DNA from: Strigamia acuminata
Taxonomy: Eukaryota
Direction: 5' to 3'
Length of the DNA: 64,000 nucleotides
NCBI GenBank assembly: GCA_949358305.1
Contig: OX442314.1
Location: forward strand, 6,820,001-6,884,000
Position 1 is the stretch's first letter; every line of letters starts with the position of its first letter. Both the position numbers and the translations under genes were made by a program. Below the pieces are notes generated by a model. The model made no database searches. It was given only the letters and a program-made list of their open reading frames with translations, and was not told the DNA's origin. Below are positions 14,364-54,536 of the stretch, piece after piece.

Positions 14364-15322
14364 TGTGGTGATCTCAAAATATTCACCAACTTAGAAGATT
14401 AAATTAATTATCTTCTAATTAATTTGACTGTGGCACACGCCAAGTCAGATCATGTGACCGAGGGGAGAAATCCTCTCTAGGCACATATCACCCCAGGTTG
14501 TCCGGGGTGAAAACGGTTATTAGCCGTTATGGTGCAATATGGTGTAATAACCACTAGTTGCACCCATTTGAGCTAAGTGCGCAGGTTTTCTGCGCAATAT
14601 TGAAGCGTGCTGGGCTCGCGTCTTGGCTCAAATCGGGACTCTGAAAAATACAACAACAACCTCAACATCACTGCTTTTGCTCCTGAAAGAAAAGTATTGA
14701 TAGAGGACCGTTGTAACTCAGTTTCACCTGCTATCTTTGTGTATCAAACGCACAAAGCCAGCAATCCTGCTTGAATTAGCCGTCGCTAATTCCAGCAATC
14801 GAGAAGAGAAGATTCCCGACGATCGTGAACCATCGCCGTCGCTGTTGCGCGAACGACAGCCACCGCCATCGTACGAAAGCCGGACGCCTACAGCCGTCAA
14901 CCACCGCCGCCGAGCCGTCGCACGAGCCGTAGAAGGAGCCCACGAGAACCATCGTCTTCGACCATCGTTCGTGAGTTCGTAGAACGAAGACAATTTGCCT
15001 TCGCCTAACAACTTCAAGTTGTTTAAGCGCCATTTCTGACGCTTTGTAGCTTGTAACAGTCGTTGCAAGCCCTTCCTTTGTTTCATTGTTTCCCGCTCAT
15101 TTTATTCTGTGATATTCATAATCATAATTAGTATATATTGTAATTTATCGAATAAAACATTTGTGTGATTTTTATTACCATAATAAACTGTCTTTTTATT
15201 CCTATTTCCGTAAACTTAACCCTAGACAAGTTTCGGCCGCGATATAAGTCTTGTAAAGCATTCACCTGCGGTTTCTGCTTAATTTATTAGAAATTAAGTG
15301 GATAAAAACCCGGATCGCAGCA
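14364..15322 (+). repeat. 5' LTR (959 bp)
   Basis: TGTGGTGATC...GATCGCAGCA; no differences seen by eye from 31499-32457; AATAAA at ~15151 and ~15182. Confidence 0.95.
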
Positions 15323-15324
15323 CG

Positions 15325-15342
15325 TGGGGGCCCGTCCGGGAT
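15325..15342 (+). promoter_or_regulatory. Primer-binding site, tRNA-Pro
   Basis: TGGGGGCCCGTCCGGGAT, 2 nt after the LTR; one mismatch to the MLV-type tRNA-Pro PBS TGGGGGCTCGTCCGGGAT. Confidence 0.9.
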
Positions 15343-15436
15343 AGTCATTGTATAAATTTTGATAGTTTAAAATTTACCCGCCATTTTTATCTTGCTTATC
15401 TTTCTTCTCTATCCTTTCTTTGTCTTCATTTGAAAA

Positions 15437-18400
15437 ATGGCGACTCCAGGCGAAAAGAGACCGAGAGGCAGACCAGCGAAGAGACGAGTGGCGATCGATC
15501 TACCAGCCGTGGATCAAGAAGTGACTGAGTCACAAGAACTGTTTGAAACTATGGATCAAACAGCTAACTGTAACTCGGCACAGTTAATCGTGAATGAATT
15601 CACGCAAGCGTTGGAGCGACAACAGCCATCCCCGCCCAGCGGCCAGTTGGACTTAAAAAATCCAACTGGAAGTGGCCGTTCCAAGTCGCAAAACGATGAT
15701 TTGAATTTACGAATTCAATCATCAAGTGCGGAGCACTCGCTGAATTCATCACCGGTTCAAGGTGCAGCACAACAAGATTCTGAGAACTCCAATATGGAAG
15801 TTTCTCATTCTCCCGTGCGTGTTACCATGATGGACGCACTCCGTGAGCAAGCTAGGCTCGAGGGAGTAAAAGTCACTAGCGAAATGACTGTGGAACAAAT
15901 CCACAAAGCTATGGTTCGCAAACAAAGCCAAAAAGACGTTGAAATCGTCAGAACAAGCTTGCAAGCAGAGTTCGAGCGAATGCGTGCAGAAATGCATCAG
16001 CAAAATGCCGAACTAAAACAACAACGTGCGAATGACCATGTTAAGTTGTTACAATTAGAACAGGAAAAAGCTTCCTGGCTAATTACTGACGAAGAGCAAC
16101 AACAAAGGCTCGAGCAACTAAATCAAGCCCAAAAAGATTTAGAAATTGCTAATGAAAATTTGAGATTGGCCAACGCAAATTTGCGAGAAGCCAACACAAA
16201 TTTAATGACTGCCGAACTAACCGCCCCAGTTCGAGCGAGGGAAGTAATTCCCTCCACTTCTCGAAATTACGAGAATCATGCTGCAGAGCAAGCAGCAAGA
16301 GCTAAGAGATTAGCACAACGAGAAAACGAAGTATTTCTCGCTCGACAGCAGTCCGTAATTGATGCTGGTCTAGCCGCCAAAAGTCAAAGTACTGCAGAGC
16401 AGTTATTACGTGCCGACTTAGCTGCGCAAGCTCGTGAAAACGAAATTCTTCGCGCAGATCTATTGACGGTACAAGAGAACTTTGCAGTAGTAGTACAAAA
16501 AGTACAAGACGTTTGTGGCGAAGATAATTTTGCAAAGCCAGCCCCAGTTTTGCAAAAAGGTGCTTCCAAATCACCTGAGTTGATTGATTTAACATCAGCT
16601 AAACCAAAAGTCAGTCGACAATCAAGTTGGACTGACAGTGATGACTCACGCAGTAGTCGTGGAAGCCGTAACAGTCATCACAGTCGCAAAAAGCGAAAGC
16701 GACAACCAGACCCGACCGAATATCATTCCCCAAAAGTTACGCAAGATTCGGATCGATTCTTTAGCAATAGCGACCGATTAATCGGAATGCTAGAGAAAAA
16801 GAATAAAGAACGTGAGAAACCACACGATCGTGGACGGTCACACGATAATCCGCGAGAAGGCTCACCAAAACGAGATTGTCATAACGACATCCGTGATGGG
16901 CCGAGATACCGTGGAAATCCGCCAGGTGGTGACCCACCAGGTGGAGATAGTTCAGATGGACATGGAGGTGGCCACTCACGTGACCACAATTCGAATGGCA
17001 ATCGAAATGGAAGGGGACCACCAAATGGAGACCGTCGTCCGCCAGATGGCGACGATCCTCCGGACCCTGATCCGCCGCCAAATCCGAATCATGAATCTGC
17101 GTCAGATACAGATTCCTCACGTCCCAGTGTGAGAGGGCGATCTCGTCACAGAACACGTAGTAGAACTCAAAGACCCGATTTCTACACGAAAGATGAGATT
17201 GACCAGTTGTTGAGGCAAAATGCTCAACAACAGCGAAAAAGCAGAAGGGATAAAATTATTTTGCAAAAAATAAGTGAATTTACTTCTGATAAATGGACTC
17301 ATCAAACAACAGATGAAAAGTTCATTAGATGGGATCGAGTTATCCCACATGCCTATAATGGAAATTGGCAAGCAGGGTCAAACCTCTTGCTGGAAATATT
17401 CGAACTAGGCAAAGTTCACAGTTTTAGCTGTGAAGGTGCATTGGCCCATCTAGTACCAAGAATACTAGTTGGCGGTGTCAAGGAGTGGTTTCGCAGGAAA
17501 GACTTCACGAAGTGGGATGACTTCGTTAAACAATTTATGTTTAAATTTGGTGAATCGAGCGAAGACATCAAAACGCTCTGGAGATGTCTTAAGCAACGAA
17601 AAGGCGAAAGCTTACATTCGTACATGCTAAGAGCAGAGAATCTGCTTGGCAGAATGCCACATGCTGTTACTGATGCAACAGCAGATGATCAGTTTAGAGC
17701 TGGCCTCACAGAATATAGTAAAAATATTCTGATGATGTCGGACGCTCCCGACCCGGGGAAATTCTCCGAGTTAAACGAATTCATGGAAGTCAATCAATTG
17801 CGCATTGACGAAAAGTACAAAGCTTATCTTACAGAAGCCGAAAGGTCAGCGTACTTAAAGCGAGAGAAAAGACTCGCTGAGCAAAACAATGAAACCTTTA
17901 ATGGTTTGAAATTGTTGCAGCCACCTAGTTACGAAGACTTTCTAGACGAAGTGGATGAGAAGAGTTCGAAAAAAGAATCTTCCAAAAAGGACGTCAAAAA
18001 TCCTCATTCAGTCCCTAAGTTACACGCAAATATAACTGGAGCTGAAACTCCGTCGTCTGAAGCTGAAGAAGCTGAAGAGGAGGAGGAAACAGGAGACGAG
18101 ACGATGGCTTTATTGGCCAAAGCAGCGGCGTTGTTAGCAAAAAATAACCCCGTTGCGGGCAAATGGAAGCCAAGGATGAAACCAAAAAATGTTTCATTTG
18201 ACGCATCAAAGGTGAATACCGAAAGGAATTCAAAGTCACCTGCGGTGTCGCCAGAGCGCCGGTCTGACGCTCGTTCTCGTTCTGCCTCGCCAGCAGCAAC
18301 GAAAAAGAAATCGCCTGCCACTGATCCATGCAATTTATGCAAAAAATTAGGGCATTGGCAAAAAGACTGCCCTTCCTCTAAAAAGGACAAACCAGTGTCA

Positions 18401-18460
18401 ACAGCTGAGTTTGAAAAAGCAGTCAAGATCATAACTGACATGTTTCGAAAAAACTTGTAG
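15437..18460 (+). CDS. gag: Gag polyprotein (1007 aa)
   Basis: Coiled-coil-like N-terminus, capsid-like segment (W..F...F...FG...LKQRKGESLHSY), C-terminal CCHC knuckle CNLCKKLGHWQKDC. Confidence 0.92.
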   Translation: MATPGEKRPRGRPAKRRVAIDLPAVDQEVTESQELFETMDQTANCNSAQLIVNEFTQALERQQPSPPSGQLDLKNPTGSGRSKSQNDDLNLRIQSSSAEHSLNSSPVQGAAQQDSENSNMEVSHSPVRVTMMDALREQARLEGVKVTSEMTVEQIHKAMVRKQSQKDVEIVRTSLQAEFERMRAEMHQQNAELKQQRANDHVKLLQLEQEKASWLITDEEQQQRLEQLNQAQKDLEIANENLRLANANLREANTNLMTAELTAPVRAREVIPSTSRNYENHAAEQAARAKRLAQRENEVFLARQQSVIDAGLAAKSQSTAEQLLRADLAAQARENEILRADLLTVQENFAVVVQKVQDVCGEDNFAKPAPVLQKGASKSPELIDLTSAKPKVSRQSSWTDSDDSRSSRGSRNSHHSRKKRKRQPDPTEYHSPKVTQDSDRFFSNSDRLIGMLEKKNKEREKPHDRGRSHDNPREGSPKRDCHNDIRDGPRYRGNPPGGDPPGGDSSDGHGGGHSRDHNSNGNRNGRGPPNGDRRPPDGDDPPDPDPPPNPNHESASDTDSSRPSVRGRSRHRTRSRTQRPDFYTKDEIDQLLRQNAQQQRKSRRDKIILQKISEFTSDKWTHQTTDEKFIRWDRVIPHAYNGNWQAGSNLLLEIFELGKVHSFSCEGALAHLVPRILVGGVKEWFRRKDFTKWDDFVKQFMFKFGESSEDIKTLWRCLKQRKGESLHSYMLRAENLLGRMPHAVTDATADDQFRAGLTEYSKNILMMSDAPDPGKFSELNEFMEVNQLRIDEKYKAYLTEAERSAYLKREKRLAEQNNETFNGLKLLQPPSYEDFLDEVDEKSSKKESSKKDVKNPHSVPKLHANITGAETPSSEAEEAEEEEETGDETMALLAKAAALLAKNNPVAGKWKPRMKPKNVSFDASKVNTERNSKSPAVSPERRSDARSRSASPAATKKKSPATDPCNLCKKLGHWQKDCPSSKKDKPVSTAEFEKAVKIITDMFRKNL

Positions 18461-18494
18461 ACGCAGATCCATCAGGTCTAGTGGACGCTGCGTC
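18448..18494 (+). promoter_or_regulatory. -1 programmed ribosomal frameshift signal
   Basis: Slippery heptamer A_AAA_AAC in the gag frame just before the gag stop; downstream stem GACGCAG/CTGCGTC; pol is in the -1 frame and open from the heptamer. Confidence 0.85.
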
Positions 18495-21400
18495 ACCTCC
18501 GAAATCGGAATCAGAGAATGAAAATCTGAAGATAATGGAAGATGTTGGAGAAGTTATTGATGAATTAATTCGTCAAACAGAACTAAAAGAAAAAGGATCT
18601 CTTGATGTAAAAAAGGAGATTGTCGGCGAAACCCCGACTGAAGAAGACACTTCCAATATTCAAGATAAAGTCGAAGTTAAAGACGATAGACCAAGCTCAG
18701 TTCCAGAGACACCTGGAATTGAGGAATGCATTAAGTTATTTGCAACTACAACTCTTGATACCAATGAGTTATTAGATGAATTGCCTTTGGAGCCTCCAAT
18801 TACAATTCCTCATAAATTGCGCAAGTTTGAGTGCAAAGTGGCTGGAATACCAAACAGCCAAGACCTTCCGACGTTAAAGTTAGAAACGTTAAAAGGTGTA
18901 ATAACCGGAATGTTGGACTCAGGAGCAAATAAAAGCTTCCTAGCCACTTCAGTTATTAATCAATTAGGTCTAGAAAAATATCTACGACCTATCGGACCTG
19001 GTGTCAGAGTTACGACGGCAAGTGAAGAAGTCACTCCAGATGGAACCATCCATCTTTCATTTCGATGGACACATGGCACGTTACGTCATCCGTTCATCGT
19101 AATACCAAATAAGTATCCAATGGTACTATTGGGTTGCGATTTTATGAATAAATTAAAAATCCAACCTAATCCACAGACGATGTCTTGGAATTTCACGCAA
19201 CCTATGGATGCAGATTTACCCTACATTCCACAAGCGTTGCTGGATCGTTATTTGGAGAAAATAGAGGAACCCGATTCCTCATTTATGACCTTTGCAAAAG
19301 CTTACGCTGCAAGTGTAACTCAAGGCAAAATTGATGAAGAGAATTTCATCCAAAAGTTAGTCGAAGAAGCTAACTTAAATTTGGAGCAATCCAAATTATT
19401 AGAAAAGATGTTATCCAAACATAAAAGGATTATTTCTAAAGATCCAGGTAAAACACACCTGGTTAAGCACAAAATTGAGCTTGACACGGAGAAACCCATC
19501 CGTGTCCCCTTTAAGAGCATAAACCCTCAAAAAAGGGAAATAATCAGACAACTTTGTCAAGACATGATTGACAAAGGCGTAGTCGTCAAAGCTGAAGGCG
19601 ATTACGGAATGCGGCCAGTCCTAGTCATGCGACCAGGAAACGACCCACGCTTGTGCATTGATTTTCGCCCCATCAATACACATACTAAGTACAACCCACC
19701 TCAAATGCCAACAATTGAGGAAATTCTGCGAGAAATCGGAGAATTCGAATGGGTCAGTACTATAGATCTGACCAAGGGATATTGGCAGATAGAATTGCGA
19801 CCTGAAGACAGAGAAAAAACTGCCTTCTGGAGCCCAATGGGAAGACTAATGTTTTTAGTCATGCCTTTCGGATTAGTAAACGCACCAACTACCTTCCAAG
19901 AATTAATGGAAAAAGTTTTGGGTGACGTTTACAGAAAATTTGCATGGGCATATTTGGATGACATAATTATTGTATCCAAATCGTTCGAAGAACACATTAA
20001 ACATTTAGATATAGTGTTTAAAAAATTGGCAGAAGCTAATTTACATGCGCACCCTGGCAAGACGCATCTCTGTAGAAAGGAATTAATTTTTCTAGGCTAC
20101 AAAGTAGGAGTAGAAGGACTTGCAGTAGACCCTAAAAAAGTCGCTGCAATTACGCAATTTCCTGCTCCTACCAATCTTAAGGAATTACAAAGATTTCTAG
20201 GCATGGTGAATTTCTTTCACCGCCTAATCAAGAATTTGGCCACAGTGGCAGAACCACTAAGGCCACTCTTGAAGAAAGATGCGGAGTTCGATTGGGAACT
20301 GCATCATCAAGCAGCATTCGACGCAATAAAAGACCTGCTTACGAATGCTGAAACAATGAAGATGCCTGACTTGTACATGCCATTTATTGTTCATACTGAC
20401 GCCAGTAAACAAGGGTTGGGTGCAGCCCTTACACAAAAGAAAAATGTGGATGGCCAAGAAGTCGAAATGCCATGCGTGTATGCAAGCAGAAGCTTGCAAC
20501 CCGCTGAAAAGAATTATACTGTGACAGAATTAGAATGTCTCGCAGTAGTATGGGGATTACGCAAATTTCGCCCATACTTAGAGTACACTACATTCACTGT
20601 ACAAACGGATCACCAAGCACTTAGGTGGTTGATGTCGTTATCTGACCCGTCGGGCAGATTAGCTCGTTGGCAAATGGAGCTGATGGCGTATTCGTTCGAA
20701 ATACAATACGTCAAAGGTCCGCTAAATGTAATAGCAGACGCATTGTCACGTGCACCTGTCAGCGCACCTGACGAACCAGAAGACGATGGCGATAATGATG
20801 ATTTATTATCATATTGTCCATCTCCTTGCCGAAGTTGGCAAATGGGAAAATTGAACGAATTACCCAAGTCAATAATAGTTAATGACGACGATCAAGCATT
20901 AATTAATTTTTGTATTAACATGCATGATCCGTCAGGAACCCCTGACGTCGAATTAAGAGCTATGATGGCTAAAAAATTCGAGCTGCCAACAACAAATGTT
21001 TTAATTAAAGCATTTGCAGCTAAAATTGCGAAGCAATTAGAATGTGATCCTCCAACGAGAGATGACATTATTGCAGCGCAAAAAGCAGACGAATTTTGCC
21101 AACATATTCGCAATTACTTGCTAAACAAGCAATATCCAAGTTACATAGTAACTCGTCTTCAAAGAAGAAACTTTGAAAGACACGCGAGTACTTATCTCAT
21201 TGAAGAAGATATGCTACTCCATTATCATCCTACCTCCACCGATGAATTGGGAGAGGATGGTAGGGCACTTAAAGTTGTTGTGCCAAGAAAATTGATTTAT
21301 AAAATCATTTGGTTGATGCACGGACATCCACTGTCCGGCCACCCAGGCATTGCGAGGACAATGTACCGAACTCGAAGAGTTTATACCTGGAAAGGTATGA

Positions 21401-22707
21401 AACGTGATATTACACGTTTTATTCAACATTGTCAAGGATGTCAGGCATGTAAGCCGAGATCAAAGACCGAAATTGAAGGCGCTCAAATTGGACCATTTGG
21501 ACCATTTGACTGCCTCAGTGTGGATTTGTCTGGTCCCAAACCAAGAACCAGAAAAAACAATACCCACATTTGCGTCATCGTAGATGTCGCTACACATTGG
21601 CCCGAATTATTTCCAATGTGTAATCCAACGGCAATAAAAGTTGCCAACACAATTTATCACTTATCAATGACTTTCGGATTTCCGAGACAAATCATAAGTG
21701 ATAATGGACCACAATTTCGATCACAGGTCTATAAAGAATTTTGCAAAAAATTCGACATGTCGCGAACACCGACATCGATTTATCATCCACAAAGCAATCC
21801 TGTGGAGAGAACCAATCGAGATATTAAATATTTAGTTTCGATTTATTTAGATATTCATGACCAATGGGATGAGTATCTACGCGAATTTGCATTCAGTTTG
21901 AGAACAACTGTAACAAGAGGCAGAGATTATTCTCCTGCTTTCTTAAATTTTTTCCGAGAATTAAGAATTCCTTGGGATCCAAGAATTCCGGAAGGAATTT
22001 TAGTCATTGATCCAAAAAATCCGCATTTATATGTTCAGAAATTAGAAACAATAATTGCAGAGACGTATCAGCATATGATGTCTCACGTCTTAGATTTGAG
22101 ACGCCGTGTCGAAGCTGAAAAATCAGATAAGAAATTCGACAACTTCAGACAAAATGATTTAGTCTGGCGAGAGTCTCATATTCTCTCAAATGCCGCTAAA
22201 GGAATAGCAGCAGGCATTTCACCGAAAAGGAATGGGCCTTATGTAATTATCAAAAGGTTACAAGGAGGCGCCTTTCAACTTCGACGGCTGAGTGATAATA
22301 AAATTTATCCAGCTGTTCACGGCACTGAATTAATGCCGTACTTTCCCGTTTTCAACCAAGAAATTTGGCTGGAAGGGGAGGAAGTGGGTCAAAAAACAAA
22401 AAATATTGTTAATACCTTGGATGATGCTAAATTATCCAAAATTCCTGTCGAAAACACGGAATCGAGTAAAAAATCGAAACTCAAAAATAACGAAGTCGAT
22501 GAAATAAACCAGCGACTTGAAAATGTTTCTCTTGATGAAAATCTAGAAAAGGAAATGTTTTTAGAAAAAGAGAAAATTTCAAACAATGAAGTATATAACT
22601 CATCTGACATTGGAGACGATGCTGATGACAATCTAAACAAGTTGGATTGTACTTCGCGAAAGTCAAAGTACAACTTGAGATCTCGCGTTCCGCGAGCCAA
22701 GACATAG
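18481..22707 (+). CDS. pol: Pol: aspartic protease, reverse transcriptase, RNase H, integrase
   Basis: LDSGA protease, YLDD RT, TDAS RNase H, HHCC zinc motif, VDLSGP/SDNGPQF/VERTNR integrase triad, GPY motif; no stops or frameshifts. Confidence 0.97.
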   Translation: MDAASPPKSESENENLKIMEDVGEVIDELIRQTELKEKGSLDVKKEIVGETPTEEDTSNIQDKVEVKDDRPSSVPETPGIEECIKLFATTTLDTNELLDELPLEPPITIPHKLRKFECKVAGIPNSQDLPTLKLETLKGVITGMLDSGANKSFLATSVINQLGLEKYLRPIGPGVRVTTASEEVTPDGTIHLSFRWTHGTLRHPFIVIPNKYPMVLLGCDFMNKLKIQPNPQTMSWNFTQPMDADLPYIPQALLDRYLEKIEEPDSSFMTFAKAYAASVTQGKIDEENFIQKLVEEANLNLEQSKLLEKMLSKHKRIISKDPGKTHLVKHKIELDTEKPIRVPFKSINPQKREIIRQLCQDMIDKGVVVKAEGDYGMRPVLVMRPGNDPRLCIDFRPINTHTKYNPPQMPTIEEILREIGEFEWVSTIDLTKGYWQIELRPEDREKTAFWSPMGRLMFLVMPFGLVNAPTTFQELMEKVLGDVYRKFAWAYLDDIIIVSKSFEEHIKHLDIVFKKLAEANLHAHPGKTHLCRKELIFLGYKVGVEGLAVDPKKVAAITQFPAPTNLKELQRFLGMVNFFHRLIKNLATVAEPLRPLLKKDAEFDWELHHQAAFDAIKDLLTNAETMKMPDLYMPFIVHTDASKQGLGAALTQKKNVDGQEVEMPCVYASRSLQPAEKNYTVTELECLAVVWGLRKFRPYLEYTTFTVQTDHQALRWLMSLSDPSGRLARWQMELMAYSFEIQYVKGPLNVIADALSRAPVSAPDEPEDDGDNDDLLSYCPSPCRSWQMGKLNELPKSIIVNDDDQALINFCINMHDPSGTPDVELRAMMAKKFELPTTNVLIKAFAAKIAKQLECDPPTRDDIIAAQKADEFCQHIRNYLLNKQYPSYIVTRLQRRNFERHASTYLIEEDMLLHYHPTSTDELGEDGRALKVVVPRKLIYKIIWLMHGHPLSGHPGIARTMYRTRRVYTWKGMKRDITRFIQHCQGCQACKPRSKTEIEGAQIGPFGPFDCLSVDLSGPKPRTRKNNTHICVIVDVATHWPELFPMCNPTAIKVANTIYHLSMTFGFPRQIISDNGPQFRSQVYKEFCKKFDMSRTPTSIYHPQSNPVERTNRDIKYLVSIYLDIHDQWDEYLREFAFSLRTTVTRGRDYSPAFLNFFRELRIPWDPRIPEGILVIDPKNPHLYVQKLETIIAETYQHMMSHVLDLRRRVEAEKSDKKFDNFRQNDLVWRESHILSNAAKGIAAGISPKRNGPYVIIKRLQGGAFQLRRLSDNKIYPAVHGTELMPYFPVFNQEIWLEGEEVGQKTKNIVNTLDDAKLSKIPVENTESSKKSKLKNNEVDEINQRLENVSLDENLEKEMFLEKEKISNNEVYNSSDIGDDADDNLNKLDCTSRKSKYNLRSRVPRAKT

Positions 22708-22896: not shown

Positions 22897-25692
22897 ATGC
22901 ATCGCATCGCCTACGTTACGACCCGAATAGTTCGACAACCTGATCGTAAGTAATTTTTCTGTATGAAAAATTTGATAAAACATAAGATTTATGTATTATT
23001 TCTCTTTCAAGACGAAAGAATTTCCGAAATTACCGGAAAACGAAAGAGAATGGACGAGGAAGCGATCCAACTCCAGGCGGACGGAGAAATGCCCATGGAA
23101 GGGGCAAATGAAGACGTTCAATTGACGCTTCAACAACGGGTAAATTATTAGAATAAATTTTTACCAAGTGTTTAAGTCAGAAAAATTGAGTAATTTCACT
23201 TTTCCTGACTTCAAACACAAGCCGCTAAAAAATAAAAATGGCGGCTATAAAAGTCACGTGCTTCAAGCATGTGCGAAGGGAGTTGCCATGACAACCAACA
23301 TCCCTTAGTGACTCACAGCCACAAGCGCTAAGCTTAAAAAATATTTCAAATAAGAAATTATTTGTTTATTTTTAAATAAACTAATTTATTTATTTTTCTT
23401 CGAATACAGATCGAGAGGGATCGAGAAACGCCATTCGCGCTTCCCGATCACGTGCCGACTCAGCACCCGCTGATTTTTCGAGCGGCATTGCCCGAAAAAA
23501 TCAGAAGACTGAAGACGGCAAACAATACCTGGTGGAAGTTGCGCCACGACTTCAGCAGATCAGCGCTGCAAGGATTTGGTGCAAAAGGAAGATTCATCGA
23601 GCGCCTTCACGTGGACGGTGTCGACGAAATCGAGTGGACGCTCGACGAGAGCCCCCCAGGACCGCTTGCAGCAGAGTTGCTGCACAACCAGTGGCCAGTG
23701 ACGCCACGAGAGCGTCACGAGCGCAGAAGAGCGCTAAAGAGTACCGGAATTAATTACGGTGCTCTAACCCAATTGAGGAAGAACCTCAAGACGACACAAC
23801 GCGAAGTCGTTAAACGGTATCGCAAATCCGTTCGTGACGGGAACCCACAACTTCCCGTCACACAAACCGAGCTCCACCAGTTGGCGCTCGCCGGGTGTTT
23901 TAACGATTTTCCGGGATTTTTCCCGTCCAAAGCACTCAGAGCTGCCGCGGTGCAGCTTCGCGTCGACGAAAATCGACAACTGGCTCGAGAACACGAGGCA
24001 GAGGAGCAAGCGCGTTGCGCTCTCCCTTTTTATCAAGAAGATGAAATTCCGGCCCCAGCGGCCATCAATCCTCCGCCGCAAGACGAGGATTTGAGGGTGG
24101 GGCAACTCCCTCCGCCGGTTCCAGTCCGACCGATGTTCCGCGAATCAAGCCGCGATCGAGAGGAACGTCAGAAGCGATCACGCCCATATTCGACTGACGC
24201 GCAGCCATCACGCCCGCAGTCGCGACGAGGACGGACACCAGAGTCGTTTGGCTCGTCGTCTTCGCTGAGTTTTGAATCGGACTCCACAATTAAGTCCGCC
24301 CGAAGTAGCCGAACCGCCTCCACGTTCAAAGTGGACAACTCGGCTACTCCATACGCCATGAGACGTGTTGTCGGTGATATTTCTCCCGACTGTAGCGTGC
24401 CAGTACCTGGACATGCTAGCCGCTTGCCCGAACAAGGATATGTTTCCCGCTTGCCGGCTGGAGTTAGCAACCTGCAACTCCGGCCATTTTTTAGTGAGTC
24501 ATTCGGCCCACAATGGACCTGCTACGAGCAGCAACCCATTAGAGCACAGCAGGAAGTGCTCCAGAAGCTGGACGCATACCAAAGCGCCCAGATCGCCGAG
24601 TCGCAGAAGGACTGGCAGAGACTAGCTGAAAGGCTAGAAGTCTCCGACATCAATACCATTGATGATCCCCGTCTGATGGATTTTCAGCGTCAGCTAATTC
24701 CGGGGATGACTAGGGTGTTGTACCCTGGTGTTCTTCCTTCGCCAGGACAGGCGTTAGCGGCCATAACGTACCTTTGGACCGCGCCGATGGGCCTGTCGGA
24801 GAAGAAAGTCGAGCTGTGGTACCACCTCAGGCTCGACCCGCCTACGATCTTAGCCGAGCTAATAAAGCAAGTCGTAGCAAACGGTGAGACCGAAGAAGAG
24901 GCCGCCGTTCGGTTGCGAACCGAGTGGTCCTTTGCGAAGGCCACGGCGCGAATGACCGGAAGACCACCGCTTCCAGTTACAAGCGCCACAGCAGCTGCGT
25001 CACTGGCTGTTTTCCAGTCGGCCCAAGAGGGCGCTGGATGTTCATTTTGGCCAGAGAACGCCGGAAGTTCTCAAACTCCAGCCGGAGTTCAACGGGTAGT
25101 CGAAACCCGTCAGCTCCCCGGTGTGGGTCGAGCACCGGGACGAGGCGTCACACCCTCGTCAACCTCCGCACCTGCGTTGGTTTTCTTGGGCCCGCAGTGC
25201 CAGTTTGACGATGCCACGACGGAAGACTCACGTCCGCCGCCGCCGCCGCCAGCCAAGCCGGAGACGAAGGTCAAGCCGCTGAAAAAAGAGTCGGCTTTCA
25301 AGACCCTAATGCGCCTGTATCCGCACTTCTATTTGACGCCGGATACGCGAACACTGCTTAGCAACAACCACAAGTTGTCGAGGCAGGTGTTTATGTGGCT
25401 CGAGGACCACATCCGGGTGTTAAGCCCACCATCGGTGCTCCATGATCGACTCCTGAGAGCACGATTAGCGCCAGAGGATCCAATCGAGTTCGCGGCGCTA
25501 GGATTCTTCAACCGAGCGAACTCGGCAAGAATCATCCAGGTTTGGCTTCATGTCAACCCTGGAATGGTCTCCGGACCAAACGCAGGTCGCGACCTGTGTA
25601 CGGTTAACGAGCGGTCCAACCCGAGGGACGACACCACGGATATGATGCGCCCGTTGACGCCTGAGCGAACTCAGACCATGGACGAATCATAA
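22897..25692 (+). CDS. Spliced accessory gene (ORF3) of unknown function, ~819 aa; exons 22897-22945, 23012-23139, 23410-25692
   Basis: Introns GTAAGT...TTTCAAG (66 nt, phase 1) and GTAAAT...TACAG (270 nt, phase 0) join three GC-richer segments into one open frame that ends in the 746-aa ORF; no signal peptide or TM anchor evident. Confidence 0.75.
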
Positions 25693-25744: not shown

Positions 25745-26434
25745 TGTGGTGATCTCAAAATATTCACCAACTTAGAAGATTAAATTAATTATCTTCTAAT
25801 TAATTTGACTGTGGCACACGCCAAGTCAGATCATGTGACCGAGGGGAGAAATCCTCTCTAGGCACATATCACCCCAGGTTGTCCGGGGTGAAAACGGTTA
25901 TTAGCCGTTATGGTGCAATATGGTGTAATAACCACTAGTTGCACCCATTTGAGCTAAGTGCGCAGGTTTTCTGCGCAATATTGAAGCGTGCTGGGCTCGC
26001 GTCTTGGCTCAAATCGGGACTCTGAAAAATACAACAACAACCTCAACATCACTGCTTTTGCTCCTGAAAGAAAAGTATTGATAGAGGACCGTTGTAACTC
26101 AGTTTCACCTGCTATCTTTGTGTATCAAACGCACAAAGCCAGCAATCCTGCTTGAATTAGCCGTCGCTAATTCCAGCAATCGAGAAGAGAAGATTCCCGA
26201 CGATCGTGAACCATCGCCGTCGCTGTTGCGCGAACGACAGCCACCGCCATCGTACGAAAGCCGGACGCCTACAGCCGTCAACCACCGCCGCCGAGCCGTC
26301 GCACGAGCCGTAGAAGGAGCCCACGAGAACCATCGTCTTCGACCATCGTTCGTGAGTTCGTAGAACGAAGACAATTTGCCTTCGCCTAACAACTTCAAGT
26401 TGTTTAAGCGCCATTTCTGACGCTTTGTAGCTTG
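25745..26434 (+). repeat. 3' LTR, truncated by the assembly gap
   Basis: Same sequence as the first 690 bp of the 5' LTR. Confidence 0.92.
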
Positions 26435-26634
26435 NNNNNNNNNNNNNNNNNNNNNNNNNNNNNNNNNNNNNNNNNNNNNNNNNNNNNNNNNNNNNNNNNN
26501 NNNNNNNNNNNNNNNNNNNNNNNNNNNNNNNNNNNNNNNNNNNNNNNNNNNNNNNNNNNNNNNNNNNNNNNNNNNNNNNNNNNNNNNNNNNNNNNNNNNN
26601 NNNNNNNNNNNNNNNNNNNNNNNNNNNNNNNNNN
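26435..26634. other. Assembly gap (200 N)
   Basis: Run of 200 N. Confidence 1.
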
Positions 26635-28461
26635 AATGACGACGATCAAGCATTAATTAATTTTTGTATTAACATGCATGATCCGTCAGGAACCCCTGAC
26701 GTCGAATTAAGAGCTATGATGGCTAAAAAATTCGAGCTGCCAACAACAAATGTTTTAATTAAAGCATTTGCAGCTAAAATTGCGAAGCAATTAGAATGTG
26801 ATCCTCCAACGAGAGATGACATTATTGCAGCGCAAAAAGCAGACGAATTTTGCCAACATATTCGCAATTACTTGCTAAACAAGCAATATCCAAGTTACAT
26901 AGTAACTCGTCTTCAAAGAAGAAACTTTGAAAGACACGCGAGTACTTATCTCATTGAAGAAGATATGCTACTCCATTATCATCCTACCTCCACCGATGAA
27001 TTGGGAGAGGATGGTAGGGCACTTAAAGTTGTTGTGCCAAGAAAATTGATTTATAAAATCATTTGGTTGATGCACGGACATCCACTGTCCGGCCACCCAG
27101 GCATTGCGAGGACAATGTACCGAACTCGAAGAGTTTATACCTGGAAAGGTATGAAACGTGATATTACACGTTTTATTCAACATTGTCAAGGATGTCAGGC
27201 ATGTAAGCCGAGATCAAAGACCGAAATTGAAGGCGCTCAAATTGGACCATTTGGACCATTTGACTGCCTCAGTGTGGATTTGTCTGGTCCCAAACCAAGA
27301 ACCAGAAAAAACAATACCCACATTTGCGTCATCGTAGATGTCGCTACACATTGGCCCGAATTATTTCCAATGTGTAATCCAACGGCAATAAAAGTTGCCA
27401 ACACAATTTATCACTTATCAATGACTTTCGGATTTCCGAGACAAATCATAAGTGATAATGGACCACAATTTCGATCACAGGTCTATAAAGAATTTTGCAA
27501 AAAATTCGACATGTCGCGAACACCGACATCGATTTATCATCCACAAAGCAATCCTGTGGAGAGAACCAATCGAGATATTAAATATTTAGTTTCGATTTAT
27601 TTAGATATTCATGACCAATGGGATGAGTATCTACGCGAATTTGCATTCAGTTTGAGAACAACTGTAACAAGAGGCAGAGATTATTCTCCTGCTTTCTTAA
27701 ATTTTTTCCGAGAATTAAGAATTCCTTGGGATCCAAGAATTCCGGAAGGAATTTTAGTCATTGATCCAAAAAATCCGCATTTATATGTTCAGAAATTAGA
27801 AACAATAATTGCAGAGACGTATCAGCATATGATGTCTCACGTCTTAGATTTGAGACGCCGTGTCGAAGCTGAAAAATCAGATAAGAAATTCGACAACTTC
27901 AGACAAAATGATTTAGTCTGGCGAGAGTCTCATATTCTCTCAAATGCCGCTAAAGGAATAGCAGCAGGCATTTCACCGAAAAGGAATGGGCCTTATGTAA
28001 TTATCAAAAGGTTACAAGGAGGCGCCTTTCAACTTCGACGGCTGAGTGATAATAAAATTTATCCAGCTGTTCACGGCACTGAATTAATGCCGTACTTTCC
28101 CGTTTTCAACCAAGAAATTTGGCTGGAAGGGGAGGAAGTGGGTCAAAAAACAAAAAATATTGTTAATACCTTGGATGATGCTAAATTATCCAAAATTCCT
28201 GTCGAAAACACGGAATCGAGTAAAAAATCGAAACTCAAAAATAACGAAGTCGATGAAATAAACCAGCGACTTGAAAATGTTTCTCTTGATGAAAATCTAG
28301 AAAAGGAAATGTTTTTAGAAAAAGAGAAAATTTCAAACAATGAAGTATATAACTCATCTGACATTGGAGACGATGCTGATGACAATCTAAACAAGTTGGA
28401 TTGTACTTCGCGAAAGTCAAAGTACAACTTGAGATCTCGCGTTCCGCGAGCCAAGACATAG
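26635..28461 (+). CDS. pol: Duplicate of pol 3' part (integrase)
   Basis: Same sequence as 20881-22707 (offset 5754). Confidence 0.85.
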   Translation, partial: NDDDQALINFCINMHDPSGTPDVELRAMMAKKFELPTTNVLIKAFAAKIAKQLECDPPTRDDIIAAQKADEFCQHIRNYLLNKQYPSYIVTRLQRRNFERHASTYLIEEDMLLHYHPTSTDELGEDGRALKVVVPRKLIYKIIWLMHGHPLSGHPGIARTMYRTRRVYTWKGMKRDITRFIQHCQGCQACKPRSKTEIEGAQIGPFGPFDCLSVDLSGPKPRTRKNNTHICVIVDVATHWPELFPMCNPTAIKVANTIYHLSMTFGFPRQIISDNGPQFRSQVYKEFCKKFDMSRTPTSIYHPQSNPVERTNRDIKYLVSIYLDIHDQWDEYLREFAFSLRTTVTRGRDYSPAFLNFFRELRIPWDPRIPEGILVIDPKNPHLYVQKLETIIAETYQHMMSHVLDLRRRVEAEKSDKKFDNFRQNDLVWRESHILSNAAKGIAAGISPKRNGPYVIIKRLQGGAFQLRRLSDNKIYPAVHGTELMPYFPVFNQEIWLEGEEVGQKTKNIVNTLDDAKLSKIPVENTESSKKSKLKNNEVDEINQRLENVSLDENLEKEMFLEKEKISNNEVYNSSDIGDDADDNLNKLDCTSRKSKYNLRSRVPRAKT

Positions 28462-28650
28462 TGTTGTCTTTCACCTTTTGGGTTTACCCAAAAGATCCGA
28501 GAAAGCAATCTCGTGACGTCATTCGTAGTACCCACTCGAATGACAACGTTAATCATACGTTATAATTAGTGACGTCACAAAGCGTCTCTAATCCAAGTTC
28601 GTGTTTGCAATCAACGAACTTAGTCACTTTTTCAAAAGTTTCGAGAGTGT

Positions 28651-31446
28651 ATGCATCGCATCGCCTACGTTACGACCCGAATAGTTCGACAACCTGATCG
28701 TAAGTAATTTTTCTGTATGAAAAATTTGATAAAACATAAGATTTATGTATTATTTCTCTTTCAAGACGAAAGAATTTCCGAAATTACCGGAAAACGAAAG
28801 AGAATGGACGAGGAAGCGATCCAACTCCAGGCGGACGGAGAAATGCCCATGGAAGGGGCAAATGAAGACGTTCAATTGACGCTTCAACAACGGGTAAATT
28901 ATTAGAATAAATTTTTACCAAGTGTTTAAGTCAGAAAAATTGAGTAATTTCACTTTTCCTGACTTCAAACACAAGCCGCTAAAAAATAAAAATGGCGGCT
29001 ATAAAAGTCACGTGCTTCAAGCATGTGCGAAGGGAGTTGCCATGACAACCAACATCCCTTAGTGACTCACAGCCACAAGCGCTAAGCTTAAAAAATATTT
29101 CAAATAAGAAATTATTTGTTTATTTTTAAATAAACTAATTTATTTATTTTTCTTCGAATACAGATCGAGAGGGATCGAGAAACGCCATTCGCGCTTCCCG
29201 ATCACGTGCCGACTCAGCACCCGCTGATTTTTCGAGCGGCATTGCCCGAAAAAATCAGAAGACTGAAGACGGCAAACAATACCTGGTGGAAGTTGCGCCA
29301 CGACTTCAGCAGATCAGCGCTGCAAGGATTTGGTGCAAAAGGAAGATTCATCGAGCGCCTTCACGTGGACGGTGTCGACGAAATCGAGTGGACGCTCGAC
29401 GAGAGCCCCCCAGGACCGCTTGCAGCAGAGTTGCTGCACAACCAGTGGCCAGTGACGCCACGAGAGCGTCACGAGCGCAGAAGAGCGCTAAAGAGTACCG
29501 GAATTAATTACGGTGCTCTAACCCAATTGAGGAAGAACCTCAAGACGACACAACGCGAAGTCGTTAAACGGTATCGCAAATCCGTTCGTGACGGGAACCC
29601 ACAACTTCCCGTCACACAAACCGAGCTCCACCAGTTGGCGCTCGCCGGGTGTTTTAACGATTTTCCGGGATTTTTCCCGTCCAAAGCACTCAGAGCTGCC
29701 GCGGTGCAGCTTCGCGTCGACGAAAATCGACAACTGGCTCGAGAACACGAGGCAGAGGAGCAAGCGCGTTGCGCTCTCCCTTTTTATCAAGAAGATGAAA
29801 TTCCGGCCCCAGCGGCCATCAATCCTCCGCCGCAAGACGAGGATTTGAGGGTGGGGCAACTCCCTCCGCCGGTTCCAGTCCGACCGATGTTCCGCGAATC
29901 AAGCCGCGATCGAGAGGAACGTCAGAAGCGATCACGCCCATATTCGACTGACGCGCAGCCATCACGCCCGCAGTCGCGACGAGGACGGACACCAGAGTCG
30001 TTTGGCTCGTCGTCTTCGCTGAGTTTTGAATCGGACTCCACAATTAAGTCCGCCCGAAGTAGCCGAACCGCCTCCACGTTCAAAGTGGACAACTCGGCTA
30101 CTCCATACGCCATGAGACGTGTTGTCGGTGATATTTCTCCCGACTGTAGCGTGCCAGTACCTGGACATGCTAGCCGCTTGCCCGAACAAGGATATGTTTC
30201 CCGCTTGCCGGCTGGAGTTAGCAACCTGCAACTCCGGCCATTTTTTAGTGAGTCATTCGGCCCACAATGGACCTGCTACGAGCAGCAACCCATTAGAGCA
30301 CAGCAGGAAGTGCTCCAGAAGCTGGACGCATACCAAAGCGCCCAGATCGCCGAGTCGCAGAAGGACTGGCAGAGACTAGCTGAAAGGCTAGAAGTCTCCG
30401 ACATCAATACCATTGATGATCCCCGTCTGATGGATTTTCAGCGTCAGCTAATTCCGGGGATGACTAGGGTGTTGTACCCTGGTGTTCTTCCTTCGCCAGG
30501 ACAGGCGTTAGCGGCCATAACGTACCTTTGGACCGCGCCGATGGGCCTGTCGGAGAAGAAAGTCGAGCTGTGGTACCACCTCAGGCTCGACCCGCCTACG
30601 ATCTTAGCCGAGCTAATAAAGCAAGTCGTAGCAAACGGTGAGACCGAAGAAGAGGCCGCCGTTCGGTTGCGAACCGAGTGGTCCTTTGCGAAGGCCACGG
30701 CGCGAATGACCGGAAGACCACCGCTTCCAGTTACAAGCGCCACAGCAGCTGCGTCACTGGCTGTTTTCCAGTCGGCCCAAGAGGGCGCTGGATGTTCATT
30801 TTGGCCAGAGAACGCCGGAAGTTCTCAAACTCCAGCCGGAGTTCAACGGGTAGTCGAAACCCGTCAGCTCCCCGGTGTGGGTCGAGCACCGGGACGAGGC
30901 GTCACACCCTCGTCAACCTCCGCACCTGCGTTGGTTTTCTTGGGCCCGCAGTGCCAGTTTGACGATGCCACGACGGAAGACTCACGTCCGCCGCCGCCGC
31001 CGCCAGCCAAGCCGGAGACGAAGGTCAAGCCGCTGAAAAAAGAGTCGGCTTTCAAGACCCTAATGCGCCTGTATCCGCACTTCTATTTGACGCCGGATAC
31101 GCGAACACTGCTTAGCAACAACCACAAGTTGTCGAGGCAGGTGTTTATGTGGCTCGAGGACCACATCCGGGTGTTAAGCCCACCATCGGTGCTCCATGAT
31201 CGACTCCTGAGAGCACGATTAGCGCCAGAGGATCCAATCGAGTTCGCGGCGCTAGGATTCTTCAACCGAGCGAACTCGGCAAGAATCATCCAGGTTTGGC
31301 TTCATGTCAACCCTGGAATGGTCTCCGGACCAAACGCAGGTCGCGACCTGTGTACGGTTAACGAGCGGTCCAACCCGAGGGACGACACCACGGATATGAT
31401 GCGCCCGTTGACGCCTGAGCGAACTCAGACCATGGACGAATCATAA
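28651..31446 (+). CDS. Duplicate of spliced ORF3; exons 28651-28699, 28766-28893, 29164-31446
   Basis: Same sequence as 22897-25692. Confidence 0.7.
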
Positions 31447-31498
31447 ATTGGTTCGTTCATTTTCTCTCCATGTAAGATTCGTCTTAAATGGGGGGATG

Positions 31499-32457
31499 TG
31501 TGGTGATCTCAAAATATTCACCAACTTAGAAGATTAAATTAATTATCTTCTAATTAATTTGACTGTGGCACACGCCAAGTCAGATCATGTGACCGAGGGG
31601 AGAAATCCTCTCTAGGCACATATCACCCCAGGTTGTCCGGGGTGAAAACGGTTATTAGCCGTTATGGTGCAATATGGTGTAATAACCACTAGTTGCACCC
31701 ATTTGAGCTAAGTGCGCAGGTTTTCTGCGCAATATTGAAGCGTGCTGGGCTCGCGTCTTGGCTCAAATCGGGACTCTGAAAAATACAACAACAACCTCAA
31801 CATCACTGCTTTTGCTCCTGAAAGAAAAGTATTGATAGAGGACCGTTGTAACTCAGTTTCACCTGCTATCTTTGTGTATCAAACGCACAAAGCCAGCAAT
31901 CCTGCTTGAATTAGCCGTCGCTAATTCCAGCAATCGAGAAGAGAAGATTCCCGACGATCGTGAACCATCGCCGTCGCTGTTGCGCGAACGACAGCCACCG
32001 CCATCGTACGAAAGCCGGACGCCTACAGCCGTCAACCACCGCCGCCGAGCCGTCGCACGAGCCGTAGAAGGAGCCCACGAGAACCATCGTCTTCGACCAT
32101 CGTTCGTGAGTTCGTAGAACGAAGACAATTTGCCTTCGCCTAACAACTTCAAGTTGTTTAAGCGCCATTTCTGACGCTTTGTAGCTTGTAACAGTCGTTG
32201 CAAGCCCTTCCTTTGTTTCATTGTTTCCCGCTCATTTTATTCTGTGATATTCATAATCATAATTAGTATATATTGTAATTTATCGAATAAAACATTTGTG
32301 TGATTTTTATTACCATAATAAACTGTCTTTTTATTCCTATTTCCGTAAACTTAACCCTAGACAAGTTTCGGCCGCGATATAAGTCTTGTAAAGCATTCAC
32401 CTGCGGTTTCTGCTTAATTTATTAGAAATTAAGTGGATAAAAACCCGGATCGCAGCA
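31499..32457 (+). repeat. 3' LTR (959 bp, complete)
   Basis: Matches the 5' LTR and is followed by the TSD ATGC. Confidence 0.95.
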
Positions 32458-34512: not shown

Positions 34513-35925
34513 TTAATAGCTTTATGCCTAAAACCGTCACTGGGTATCACACAATCAAAAATCAATTTACATATCTTCTTTCCAAGATTGCCCTTCATGG
34601 AAATAGATTTACCACTTTGCAAATGCTTGAACGCATCCGAAAAATATAAAACTGCATTGGACTTGATTAGATTCACGGAACCAATTGCTGATTGCCTATG
34701 TCAACGTCCGTGTCAACAAATAACCTTTACACCATACACGGATTCAGATTTAGGAGGTAATCTGGGCCTGTTTCTCGGTCTATCCTTAATCTCAATACCC
34801 GAAATCATTTGGTATTTACATTGCATTGCATCAAACAACCAACGAAAAACAACCGGTGAGAAAATCCGCCATCTCTATGAGACCTGCAAAAAGAAAGTCA
34901 CTGAAAGCGTAGAGCAAAAGATCGAAAAAAATAAAGTATTGGAAAAGTTGAAGTTAATACTGTACTCGTGTTACTTAGTACGGGTTTTACTTTAATTTGC
35001 CTGTGCATTCGTTTCAACTACTACACTGATGAACCGGTAACTACAATCGTTGGAATAGCGCACCAACGATATGCAAAGTTTCCTTCCAGCATAGTATGTG
35101 GTGAAAAACAAAACGAAAAGATGTACAAAGGCAGATTGGACTTACTTAAACACACCAATAAAACTTGTAGCACTATATCACCCTGGCATTTGTTCAATAA
35201 CAAATTGTCGGTGGAAGAAATCTGGAATACCCTCAATGTTCATGAAGCAAGTAGTTTGGAGTTGAATGTTCACGAAACAAATCATTCTGAGACAAATGTA
35301 ATGAATATGGTAAATTCTTAAAATATAAACAAGATAATTAAAATGTGTTTTTTCTTAGAAGATACCAATCAATCGAACTCCACTTCCTTTTGGTGACTGT
35401 GCACAAATAAACACAGGTATTCTACAAAATTAAATTATTTTAGTCCAACAGAATTTCACACACAGAATTTCACAAAAGAGCGTTTAGAGTAGCATATAAA
35501 ACTTAACCAACACTTTAATTTCGGTTACCATAATTGCTCGCACTGAGCCTAGGATACTGGTGGAATGCAGAATTCATTATAATGCGGCTGAAAAGTCCAA
35601 TTATCTATTTTTTATGTGCCAAAAATGCATTTTAACCCTCCAAGGCCTTAACTTTCCCAAGCCAAGGTGGGTAAAAAAAATCACAGAAGTGGAAAAACCA
35701 CTAATTCTTTTTTTCCTGAAAATTAATTAAGGAGGACAACTTTTATTCCTAAAAAACTTTTTTTTCTTATTTTATAATGTCTAAATGTAAATAGTTTTTC
35801 AATTATTATTAAGTTAATTTAATATTTATAACATAAAACACCCTTAATGGGAACGCCGTACACCGCTTTGCCATCTGTTTGCACTAGATGGCGTATTAAA
35901 ATTAGTTCTAAAACATCTGCTCCTG

Positions 35926-36060
35926 CCAGGAAAAATGTGATTGCACCAGGAAAAATGTGATTGCACCAGGAAAAATGTGATTGCACCAGGAAAAATGTGA
36001 TTGCACCAGGAAAAATGTGATTGCACCAGGAAAAATGTGATTGCACCAGGAAAAATGTTA
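35926..36060. repeat. 20-bp minisatellite (TTGCACCAGGAAAAATGTGA), ~6.5 copies
   Basis: Direct tandem copies. Confidence 0.95.
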
Positions 36061-36912
36061 TTGTGCAGATGGGCAGAAGGATTTTTGAAAAGGAGATAGA
36101 AATGACCGAACATAGCTGCACACGTGTAGTAACCAGCCTTGGCTATGGGAAGGTTAAGCCTATATGCATTTAGGGACACCCACTTTCATGAAGAGGAAAA
36201 ATTCATTATTTTGCTGAAAAATTTGTGATTTTATTCATGTGATATTGAACCTTCATCTTCGTCTCCAGTGGAATTTGAAGTCATTGGTTATTTACTTAAT
36301 TAATTATACTAAATTGTAATTTTCTGCCCCAACTCCAGCATAACAATTAACCCAGCTTTGCTGCATTTGTAAAGAGCGCTTCAGCTAACATCTTTCAGCA
36401 TTACCAGTAGTGCTTAAAACCACCACCAGTTGATGCAAAATTCTTTGTTATTATTGTTTACGCCCTCTATAATTCTAGCAGAAAACTAAAAAAAAAACTA
36501 AATTGCGGTTTAACCAATGGACCTAAAAAGCATCCTTAAACACGCAAGGCCTATACCAAAACGACATACTGTATTTAACCCTTACACCCCGTTCGCACTA
36601 CAGAGTTAAGCTAGCTTAATTCTTTATAACTATTTGTATGAATGTAGTGCGAACACAACTAGCTTATCTTAAGCTGGATTATCAGTTTTGAAGTTAAGTG
36701 AATATGCACAATTTATATTTGATTTTTATATTGCATATTCCATAATTAAATAAAATAAAATAATAAATAAAATAAAATTTAATTTGTTGGCATTAACTAT
36801 TCCTGGCAATGTATGAACTTATTGCTGAGTAGTGTCTGGATAAGCCTTAAAATATGCTAGTAGTGCTAACGGCCTGGCTCAGCAACATAGGCCAGGCTAT
36901 TCTAGCTTGATA

Positions 36913-38029
36913 TTAGCTATACTCTGGCTTATAGTAAGAGGGGGAGCAGTTCCTATTAGCTGAGCCATTTCACTGGCCATTTCATAGGCCAAAATACATG
37001 TTGAGTGCTTGCCAGACAAAACAATCAATCATAAAATTCAAAAATTGCTTGCTTTCCTGACAAAACAAGCAATAAACTGAACAAACTGAACAAACATGTA
37101 TTTTGAAAAAATAACAGCATAAAACATTGCTTTAAGACTTTTTAAAACATTTTATTATTAAATAAAAGTCTATTTATATCATTTCAACCATCTACAACAG
37201 GGGTCGGCAACTTTTTGAGACAGAAGAGCCAAAAGTTAAAATTTACATAATTTCCCAGTTTTTAAAGAGCCACGTGGCTCTTTAAAAACTGGGAAATTAT
37301 GTAAAAAAAAAATTAAACACCCGGGCGTTTATACGGTACCGTATAAACGCCCGGGTGTTTAATTTTTTTTTTCAGCCGCTTCCCCTGCGCCAATTTGAAA
37401 CTCGGTGCTAAATTGAACCCGGCGCATAACCAAAAATTTGCCGATTTTTTGCAAAAAATGGCGATTTTTCGGCTAAATCATCAATTTTTAACAAAAAAAA
37501 CGGTAATTTTTGGGGGCCCGGCGCTTATTCGGGGCCGGCGCAATTCATTGAACCGCCGATGACTGCCCGGCGCTAAAACGGGGCCGGCGCTTTATTGAAC
37601 CCGGGCGTTTAAACGGGGCAGTAGCGACGCCGTATTTCAGCTGCTTAGATTCAGCTAGGTTAGGTTAGTTTAGGTCAGGTTAGGTTAGTTTGTTTAGGTT
37701 AGGTCAGGTCAGGTTAGGTTCAATTAGATTAAAAAACGGCGTCGCTAAAACGGGCGTCGCTAAAGTGAAGTACATTCTTCCAGTTATATGAATGTACTTC
37801 ACTTTAGGGACGCACGTTTTAGCGACGCCGCATCTCGGAGAGCCCCACCTTGGCATCAAAAGAGCCGCATGCGGCGCGGTTGCCGACCCCTGATCTACAA
37901 TAATCAAACAAATTAAAAACACAACAAAACTACATTTCCTGGTGGTAGTATATAGGCAACAGTTAGGAGTAAACAGGCTCGGCCAATAGGAACTGGTCCC
38001 CCTCTTACGATGAGCCGGAGTATAGCTAA
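36913..38029. mobile_element. MITE with ~48-bp TIRs, hosting a nested hAT MITE
   Basis: TTAGCTATACTCTGGCTTATAGTAAGAGGGGGAGCAGTTCCTATT / AATAGGAACTGGTCCCCCTCTTACGATGAGCCGGAGTATAGCTAA. Confidence 0.7.
37198..37892. mobile_element. hAT-type MITE containing further nested fragments
   Basis: TIR CAGGGGTCGGCAAC / GTTGCCGACCCCTG, 8-bp TSD ATCTACAA; a shorter relative lies at ~12568-12702. Confidence 0.88.
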
Positions 38030-50014: not shown

Positions 50015-50480
50015 TATTAGGTTAGCACGCATTCTAAAAGAAACAAAAAATAACAAATATGATGATGTCGAAGAAATCTAATTTAAATAAAAGTAGAATT
50101 CAAAAACATACAGTTTATATCTATTTTTTTTTACAAACTCACACCAATGCACACAAGAATTTGCGGCGATCCGGCTATTCTATTGTGGTGATCTCGAATT
50201 GTTTCACCACTTAGGAAGTAAATGTGAAATGTCGCAGGTCGAATTTATACTTTGTATATTTTAAAACTGGTTACAATTTGTTGAGATTATTTGTGGATGT
50301 TGTCGTTTGCATTAGATTAGGAAGGGATCGAGAAAGAACACATGTATTGCATTTGCATGTAAAACAGGAAGTAAGATTTATTCTATCTTTAGTTTACATA
50401 TAATCAGTCAAATTAACATAAACGCCACCTGACGGTGACGCACCAAACAAATACCGCCAACACTCCTACTGTTTGGTGTG

Positions 50481-54522: not shown

Positions 54523-54536
54523 CTGGGCCCATAACC
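54523..54536 (-). promoter_or_regulatory. Copia PBS complementary to an internal part of initiator tRNA-Met
   Basis: GGTTATGGGCCCAG directly after the 5' LTR, the half-tRNA PBS known from Drosophila copia. Confidence 0.85.

Follow-up and report, generated by a model that had tools for sequence, protein, structure and literature searches.

The long terminal repeat (LTR) of a Ty3/gypsy retrotransposon in the window analysed here (the whole 64-kb stretch) opens with a chain of predicted hairpins, which raises the questions of whether this pairing is selected, on which strand and in which part of the transcript it would act, and what it would do. U3, the region in which such a chain would probably lie, is commonly regarded as hypervariable promoter DNA. 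A first-pass annotation had described about eight covarying stem–loops at 14366-14632, kept in a diverged sister LTR, and had read them as a cis-acting plus-strand RNA, with export, stability, packaging or translation as candidate functions.

The element has the PR-RT-RNaseH-IN pol order, paired LTRs, primer binding site, polypurine tract (PPT) and target duplication of a Ty3/gypsy LTR retrotransposon (Metaviridae) (Table 1), and the best full-length relative of its pol is 38% identical. Its gag is unusually long, and the only Pfam match in it is the zinc knuckle, with none to capsid. The end of gag carries a slippery heptamer at 18448 with a hairpin behind it (−17.2 kcal/mol; 18448-18500), and pol lies in the −1 frame, so that the junction reads as a classic programmed frameshift. 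We take the primer binding site to match tRNA-Pro over its full length; no tRNA genes were found in the 64-kb window. The segment 20881-26434 is an exact repeat of 26635-32188 (5,554 bp) flanking a 200-N gap (26435-26634), and the apparent third LTR and second ORF3 probably come from a duplication in the assembly and not from a tandem element. Immediately ahead of the 3′ LTR the PPT pairs, by prediction, with upstream sequence, whereas the PPT-containing hairpins for which PMC3601003 (partial text) urges a search are formed with U3. Exons of host DEG/ENaC (ASC) channel genes at 34588-41758 mark the window as animal genomic DNA and, with a CpG observed/expected ratio near 1, point to an animal with unmethylated repeats.

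Table 1. Positions of the element, its LTR structures and the sister LTR (window coordinates)
Feature	Position	Strand	Remarks
5′ LTR	14364..15322	+	959 bp; TG...CA; imperfect terminal inverted repeat; 4-bp target duplication ATGC
Ten-hairpin array	14366..14644	+	254 of 281 nt within hairpins; 8 of 9 spacers 1-3 nt; likely U3
H1 to H5	14366-14388; 14391-14418; 14422-14450; 14452-14486; 14488-14510	+	
H6 to H10	14512-14528; 14531-14564; 14578-14596; 14600-14631; 14633-14644	+	
Second helix chain, first four	14668-14700; 14735-14757; 14769-14796; 14840-14861	+	kept in both copies; likely R
Second helix chain, last four	14936-14978; 14985-15003; 15007-15024; 15049-15070	+	kept in both copies; likely R
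Splice-donor-like GTGAGT	14971..14976	+	kept in sister; predicted paired within helix 14936-14978; putative donor
AATAAA and GU-rich tract	15151..15172	+	AATAAA kept in sister; putative poly(A) signal
Hairpin near LTR end	15274..15302	+	in both copies; putative U5
Primer binding site, tRNA-Pro type	15325..15342	+	start resembles the Cer1 tRNA-Pro site (PMC10309623, partial text)
gag	15437..18460	+	1007 aa; zinc knuckle at C-terminus
pol	18481..22707	+	PR-RT-RNaseH-IN, Ty3/gypsy order; −1 frame
CRE-like palindromes	22760 and 22816		upstream of ORF3
ORF3	22897..25692	+	orphan; predicted coding exons 22897-22945, 23012-23139, 23410-25692; 819 aa
Third LTR copy	25745..26434	+	identical to 5′ LTR; cut by 200-N gap
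Two predicted hairpins	31425..31498	+	before 3′ LTR: one spans the ORF3 stop, one pairs the polypurine tract; single copy
3′ LTR	31499..32457	+	identical to 5′ LTR; begins 52 nt past the ORF3 stop
Sister solo LTR, first piece	50184..50222	+	H1 and 5′ arm of H2
Sister solo LTR, second piece	60272..~61144	+	from 3′ arm of H2 on; end uncertain

A Bel/Pao element, inserted with duplication of 5 bp, interrupts the sister solo LTR, whose two pieces were compared separately with the reference. Overall the sister is 74% identical to the element LTR; in the array, where 37 of 270 positions differ, the figure is 86%. The whole of 50184-61144 is a set of nested insertions, copia (50279-54732) within Bel/Pao (50223-60266) within the sister gypsy LTR. 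The gypsy pol at 61531-63999 (minus strand) that neighbours the sister LTR was rejected as a relative of the element (24% identity).

All eight stems named by the first-pass annotation are present, but the array in fact comprises ten hairpins and extends to 14644, and the structure reaches beyond the LTR start: behind the array, nine more homologous helices continue as far as 15302, giving about 20 hairpins in a chain that spans most of the LTR up to a U-rich tract. The ten array stems (4-14 bp) are unlike one another, without a repeated unit, their loops vary in length, and they form a flat chain without a long closing stem. The fold of 14365-14640 has a z score of −8.9 on the plus and −8.0 on the minus strand, equalled by 0 of 200 shuffles in each case; the sister array folds no worse (z −10.7; 0 of 200). 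For the first 200 nt of the LTR z is −7.3, against −6.0 to +2.2 in 15 other gypsy LTR starts (those of the 98 retrieved loci in which a tract could be recognised) and +0.1 and +2.6 in two other LTRs within the window. Among 957 windows of 200 nt behind pol in 55 unrelated gypsy loci, 3 loci reached z −5.3 to −5.7; the present element gave −6.6 and −5.3. Strong LTR folding is thus uncommon, not unique. A simple count of hairpins was dropped as a discriminator, as coding regions likewise reach 8 per 280 nt. One of the unrelated gypsy elements (L081, 7152-7450), with an env-like third ORF and apparently errantivirus-like, also has an LTR that opens with strong hairpins (z −5.8), and in three others, probably plant gypsy elements (L090, L091 and L093), a repeated short palindrome after pol forms hairpin clusters in Sirevirus-like style.

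With hand-defined helices, 14 of 80 array pairs of the reference are altered in the sister: two are double compensatory changes, nine are swaps between Watson–Crick and G-U pairs, a kind of change that the first-pass annotation had noted, and three are broken. Three breaks compare with 11.1 under the null (P = 5 × 10−5), a test that is partly circular in that the helix set was picked with both copies in view; two of the three reflect a register slip in H4, which retains a 7-bp stem. The two double changes named earlier are real, both lie in H2, and they exceed the 0.3 expected for hand-defined pairs (P = 0.035). CpG decay was rejected as the source of the stem changes: 4 of 17 are CpG-type, neither double change is, and the host CpG observed/expected ratio is 0.87-1.05. 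Each of the five indels between the two arrays sits in a loop, a bulge or a spacer, and paired positions differ between copies at 17 of 162, compared with 132 of 616 in the remaining LTR.

When pairs were defined from one copy, 8 of 14 altered pairs in 14403-14644 (without H1 and H2) were broken against 9.7 expected (P = 0.27), and the other three settings were likewise not significant (P = 0.33-0.43), because of the H4 register slip, copy-specific outer pairings and helix ends. Covariation, claimed for the array, is accordingly thin there and strong downstream. In 14645-15304, 15 of 34 altered one-copy-defined pairs were broken against 28.2, and 8 double changes were counted against 1.8 expected, a number reached in 0 of 5,000 simulations; this pairwise count was used in place of the MAFFT-based 14-15, which is inflated by a register shift at 15276-15283. 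Most double compensatory changes fall within the 14668-15070 chain, with the clearest covariation at 14735-15070 and, for instance, three double changes in the helix at 14773-14792, within its 8-bp core.

Family variants, drawn from the contigs of two sequencing runs on a single organism, both in one study and possibly of the source sample, also avoid the stems. In the array, 8 of 29 fall in paired positions, which make up 59% of positions (P = 0.0006), and one breaks a pair; among the variants listed (40 of 136), 24 lie in 14700-15075, 3 of them paired and none breaking, with the remaining 16 in the array or past 15075. Of the listed variants in 14364-15075 that occur in neither window copy, 4 of 29 are paired where 46% of positions are (P = 0.0002); variants are linked on contigs, which makes these binomial P values optimistic. 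Taken together, the avoidance of stems by variants, the hand-defined test and the downstream double changes indicate that pairing is very probably under selection across the LTR, the best covariation lying outside the region first annotated.

By analogy with known LTR response elements, the likeliest role of the array is as an export or stability element for intron-retaining genomic RNA, a role that we propose tentatively. Selection might instead act on structure as such, with no specific partner: folded LTR RNA could evade small-RNA silencing or nucleases, be compacted, or present the donor or poly(A) site. The chain does cover most of the LTR, covariation is free in the downstream stems, whose sequence is not conserved, the donor-like site is paired in the predicted fold, and foamy virus poly(A) choice is set by LTR RNA structure (PMC3694450, partial text). 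We consider this unlikely, because the predicted accessibility is unchanged whether or not the array is present (donor 0.17-0.22; AATAAA 0.13-0.16) and the high sequence conservation of the array stems suggests recognition. In retroviral and foamy LTRs RNA structure regulates expression, and the element resembles them in its predicted LTR RNA structure and in a donor-like site in a helix upstream of AATAAA (PMC2664473 and PMC3694450, partial texts). Unlike the foamy virus donor/poly(A) switch (PMC3694450, partial text), there is no predicted switch between the 5′ and 3′ contexts here, and a poly(A) switch is not supported.

The place of the array in the transcript bears on the export or stability role. 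The sequence from the polypurine tract to the poly(A) site of an LTR element is carried in genomic RNA; with AATAAA at 15151 as poly(A) signal, the array would thus lie at the 3′ end. The stretch 14645-15436 contains 0 ATG against 9.5 expected (sister, 1 against 8.7) and CAT is not depleted, whereas inside the array ATG and CAT are equally low, so that strand-specific depletion is found only behind it. The last ATG is at 14539, and the array ATGs open frames of 1, 15 and 2 codons (sister, 1 and 3). The ATG-free stretch is therefore a likely leader, with a start site at or before ~14700 and, most simply, just behind the array, which probably makes the array U3. The earlier placement in U3, at the 3′ end of transcripts, agrees with this ATG depletion and with the AATAAA.

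If transcription instead began near the first base of the LTR, the array would lie in R and its hairpins would be a 5′ leader, TAR-like or serving packaging, ribosome shunting or an IRES. A hairpin-only U3 would offer a promoter little space, behind the array neither TATA nor initiator is clearly conserved between the two copies, the only three ATGs before gag sit in the array and open very short frames, and retroviral LTRs often carry stem–loops where R begins (PMC2664473, partial text). That the strand-specific ATG depletion occurs only behind the array, and that this arrangement demands a nearly absent U3, make it quite unlikely. The retroviral R structures, such as TAR, the MLV R loop and the HTLV RexRE, comprise 1-3 stems, unlike the ~20 hairpins here (PMC2664473, partial text).

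An intramolecular role was also considered. Cyclisation elements of the Ty1 CYC type rest on complementarity between U3 and the 5′ region; here cyclisation was rejected, with no complementarity of at least 11 nt between the two and duplex energies no better than those of shuffles.

The proposed role in transcripts would have the array act as plus-strand RNA. In two-copy folds the plus strand of the array gives −81.1 (z −10.3; 10 one-sided changes) and the minus strand −55.7 (z −5.6; 3), making the plus consensus 25 kcal/mol more stable, whereas in the mid-LTR (−70.8, z −9.4; −95.7, z −11.0) the strands are comparable and the minus strand folds as well. G-U tolerance, from which plus-strand RNA had been concluded, offers no proof: G-U outnumbers A-C by 9 to 2 in curated pairs (P = 0.03) and 5 to 2 in reference Watson–Crick pairs (P = 0.23), but the strand-blind count is 4 to 4. 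DNA folding parameters also favour the plus strand by 5-6 kcal/mol, and single-stranded DNA is therefore compatible with that tolerance. The plus-strand preference of the array is moderate. A single-strand structure of the plus strand is likely, RNA is its natural carrier, and we think it probable that the array acts as RNA.

Constraint at the level of DNA is a distinctly unlikely account. It would take the stems as palindromes in U3 that serve the promoter or bind factors, or as single-stranded DNA hairpins formed during reverse transcription, as has been proposed for the palindrome-rich cis-region in Sirevirus LTRs. The H8 arms do resemble what we take to be a C/EBP-type site, the array stems are kept more by sequence than by covariation, the minus strand folds too (z −8.0), DNA parameters give stable folds and the strand-blind G-U test is neutral. 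Yet ten unlike stems with variable loops, the H4 slip and the Watson–Crick/G-U swaps fit a single-strand structure better than duplex sites, and the stability of the plus consensus and the downstream double compensation also speak against it. In Sireviruses (plant Ty1/copia; partial text of the report) the upstream half of the LTR likewise carries conserved predicted hairpins, thought to be cis-regulatory, but these derive from one palindrome unit at 7.3 copies per LTR, unlike the ten unrelated stems of this gypsy element; the ten different stems and the gypsy pol order ruled out a Sirevirus-type palindrome region. Last, the very improbable idea that the stems arose neutrally, as inverted micro-duplications left by reverse transcriptase and common by descent, can appeal to an alignment of just two full copies, with 86% identity over the array, and to the non-significant automatic array test, but is already largely refuted by variants that avoid stems, eight downstream double compensatory changes and a sister that folds no worse.

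A role in export would be called for if ORF3 is expressed as its sequence suggests. Its predicted exons are in phase across two GT-AG introns, and ahead of it lie two palindromes that we take to be CRE-like, found elsewhere in the window only in the duplicate, which suggests an internal promoter. Were ORF3 spliced from such a promoter, genomic RNA would need to leave the nucleus with its introns kept, as in Cer1 and HERV-K. The exporter could be a host factor or an accessory protein bound to structured RNA: the first ten hairpins would form a protein-binding RNA platform at the 3′ end of element transcripts, helping intron-retaining genomic RNA to exit the nucleus or survive, with the ORF3 protein as a possible partner.

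Many LTR retrotransposons carry 3′ ORFs without assigned function. For ORF3 we found no homologue among candidates of 410-1306 aa or in 1.84 billion representatives, no Atlas hit, no Pfam domain and no fold match in the PDB, the models being of low confidence (pLDDT 40.5 and 61.5). A scan for RNA-binding and export motifs gave one basic 15-mer and one weak export-signal-like motif. That ORF3 is the partner of the array is doubtful, and slightly more so is the fuller picture of a ‘complex’ Ty3/gypsy element with its own Rev/RRE-like module, in which spliced accessory proteins of a new family, expressed from an internal promoter, would read an LTR consisting almost entirely of conserved RNA hairpins. 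The flat chain, an ORF3 without homologue or informative fold and the non-significant array pair test all count against the export reading.

Response elements of the Rev/Rec type have a long closing stem, which the array lacks. A close parallel is the HERV-K (HML-2) RcRE, a multi-stem–loop RNA in U3, at the transcript 3′ end, that with Rec exports intron-retaining RNA (PMC6916052, partial text). The present element resembles it in having a multi-stem–loop LTR RNA, putatively in U3 and at the transcript 3′ end, and a candidate accessory protein (PMC6916052, partial text), and differs in being Ty3/gypsy, in its flat chain of short hairpins and in showing no sequence or Rfam similarity; ORF3, at ~819 aa, has no likeness to Rec, and its export role is putative (PMC6916052, partial text). 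The array may work like a structured LTR response element and is at most a candidate member of any such family.

In C. elegans, export of the tRNA-Pro-primed Ty3/gypsy element Cer1 depends on CERV, the protein of its spliced 3′ ORF (PMC10309623, partial text). The two share the superfamily, the tRNA-Pro primer site, a large spliced 3′ ORF (here predicted) unlike known proteins and, here by prediction, a need to export unspliced genomic RNA; Cer1 differs in having no stop between gag and pol, where the present element has a −1 frameshift (PMC10309623, partial text). ORF3 showed no homology to CERV as far as the searched libraries include it. The partial text of PMC10309623 names no RNA response element for Cer1, with 0 occurrences of ‘stem-loop’ or ‘response element’.

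The array itself has no counterpart in the collections searched. Against the covariance models of Rfam 15, those of ribozymes, ENE, CTE, pre-miRNA and IRES among them, it gave no match other than two chance-level hits far under the gathering score, and the sister gave none; neither the hammerhead core motif nor a G4 pattern occurs in the array region, and its stems are too short for a pre-miRNA. The 98 distant gypsy loci (27-43% identity) showed no similarity in LTR, gag or ORF3, and a covariance model built on H3-H7 matched none of them. An exact-pattern scan of metagenome contigs and a single-protein scan of viral contigs each returned 0 matches, and no homologue of the array was found outside the species in the sequence sets searched. 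In the literature searched, mostly non-subscription papers, no description turned up of an animal gypsy LTR organised as a chain of conserved hairpins.

How unspliced retrotransposon RNA is exported is posed as a largely open question (PMC10309623, partial text). The family studied here is high-copy, its natural variants chart the structure, and it supplies both a candidate protein and a defined candidate for the RNA element. If the reading holds, the LTR would be constrained as RNA over most of its length, which would change how such repeats are read, including solo LTRs near host genes.
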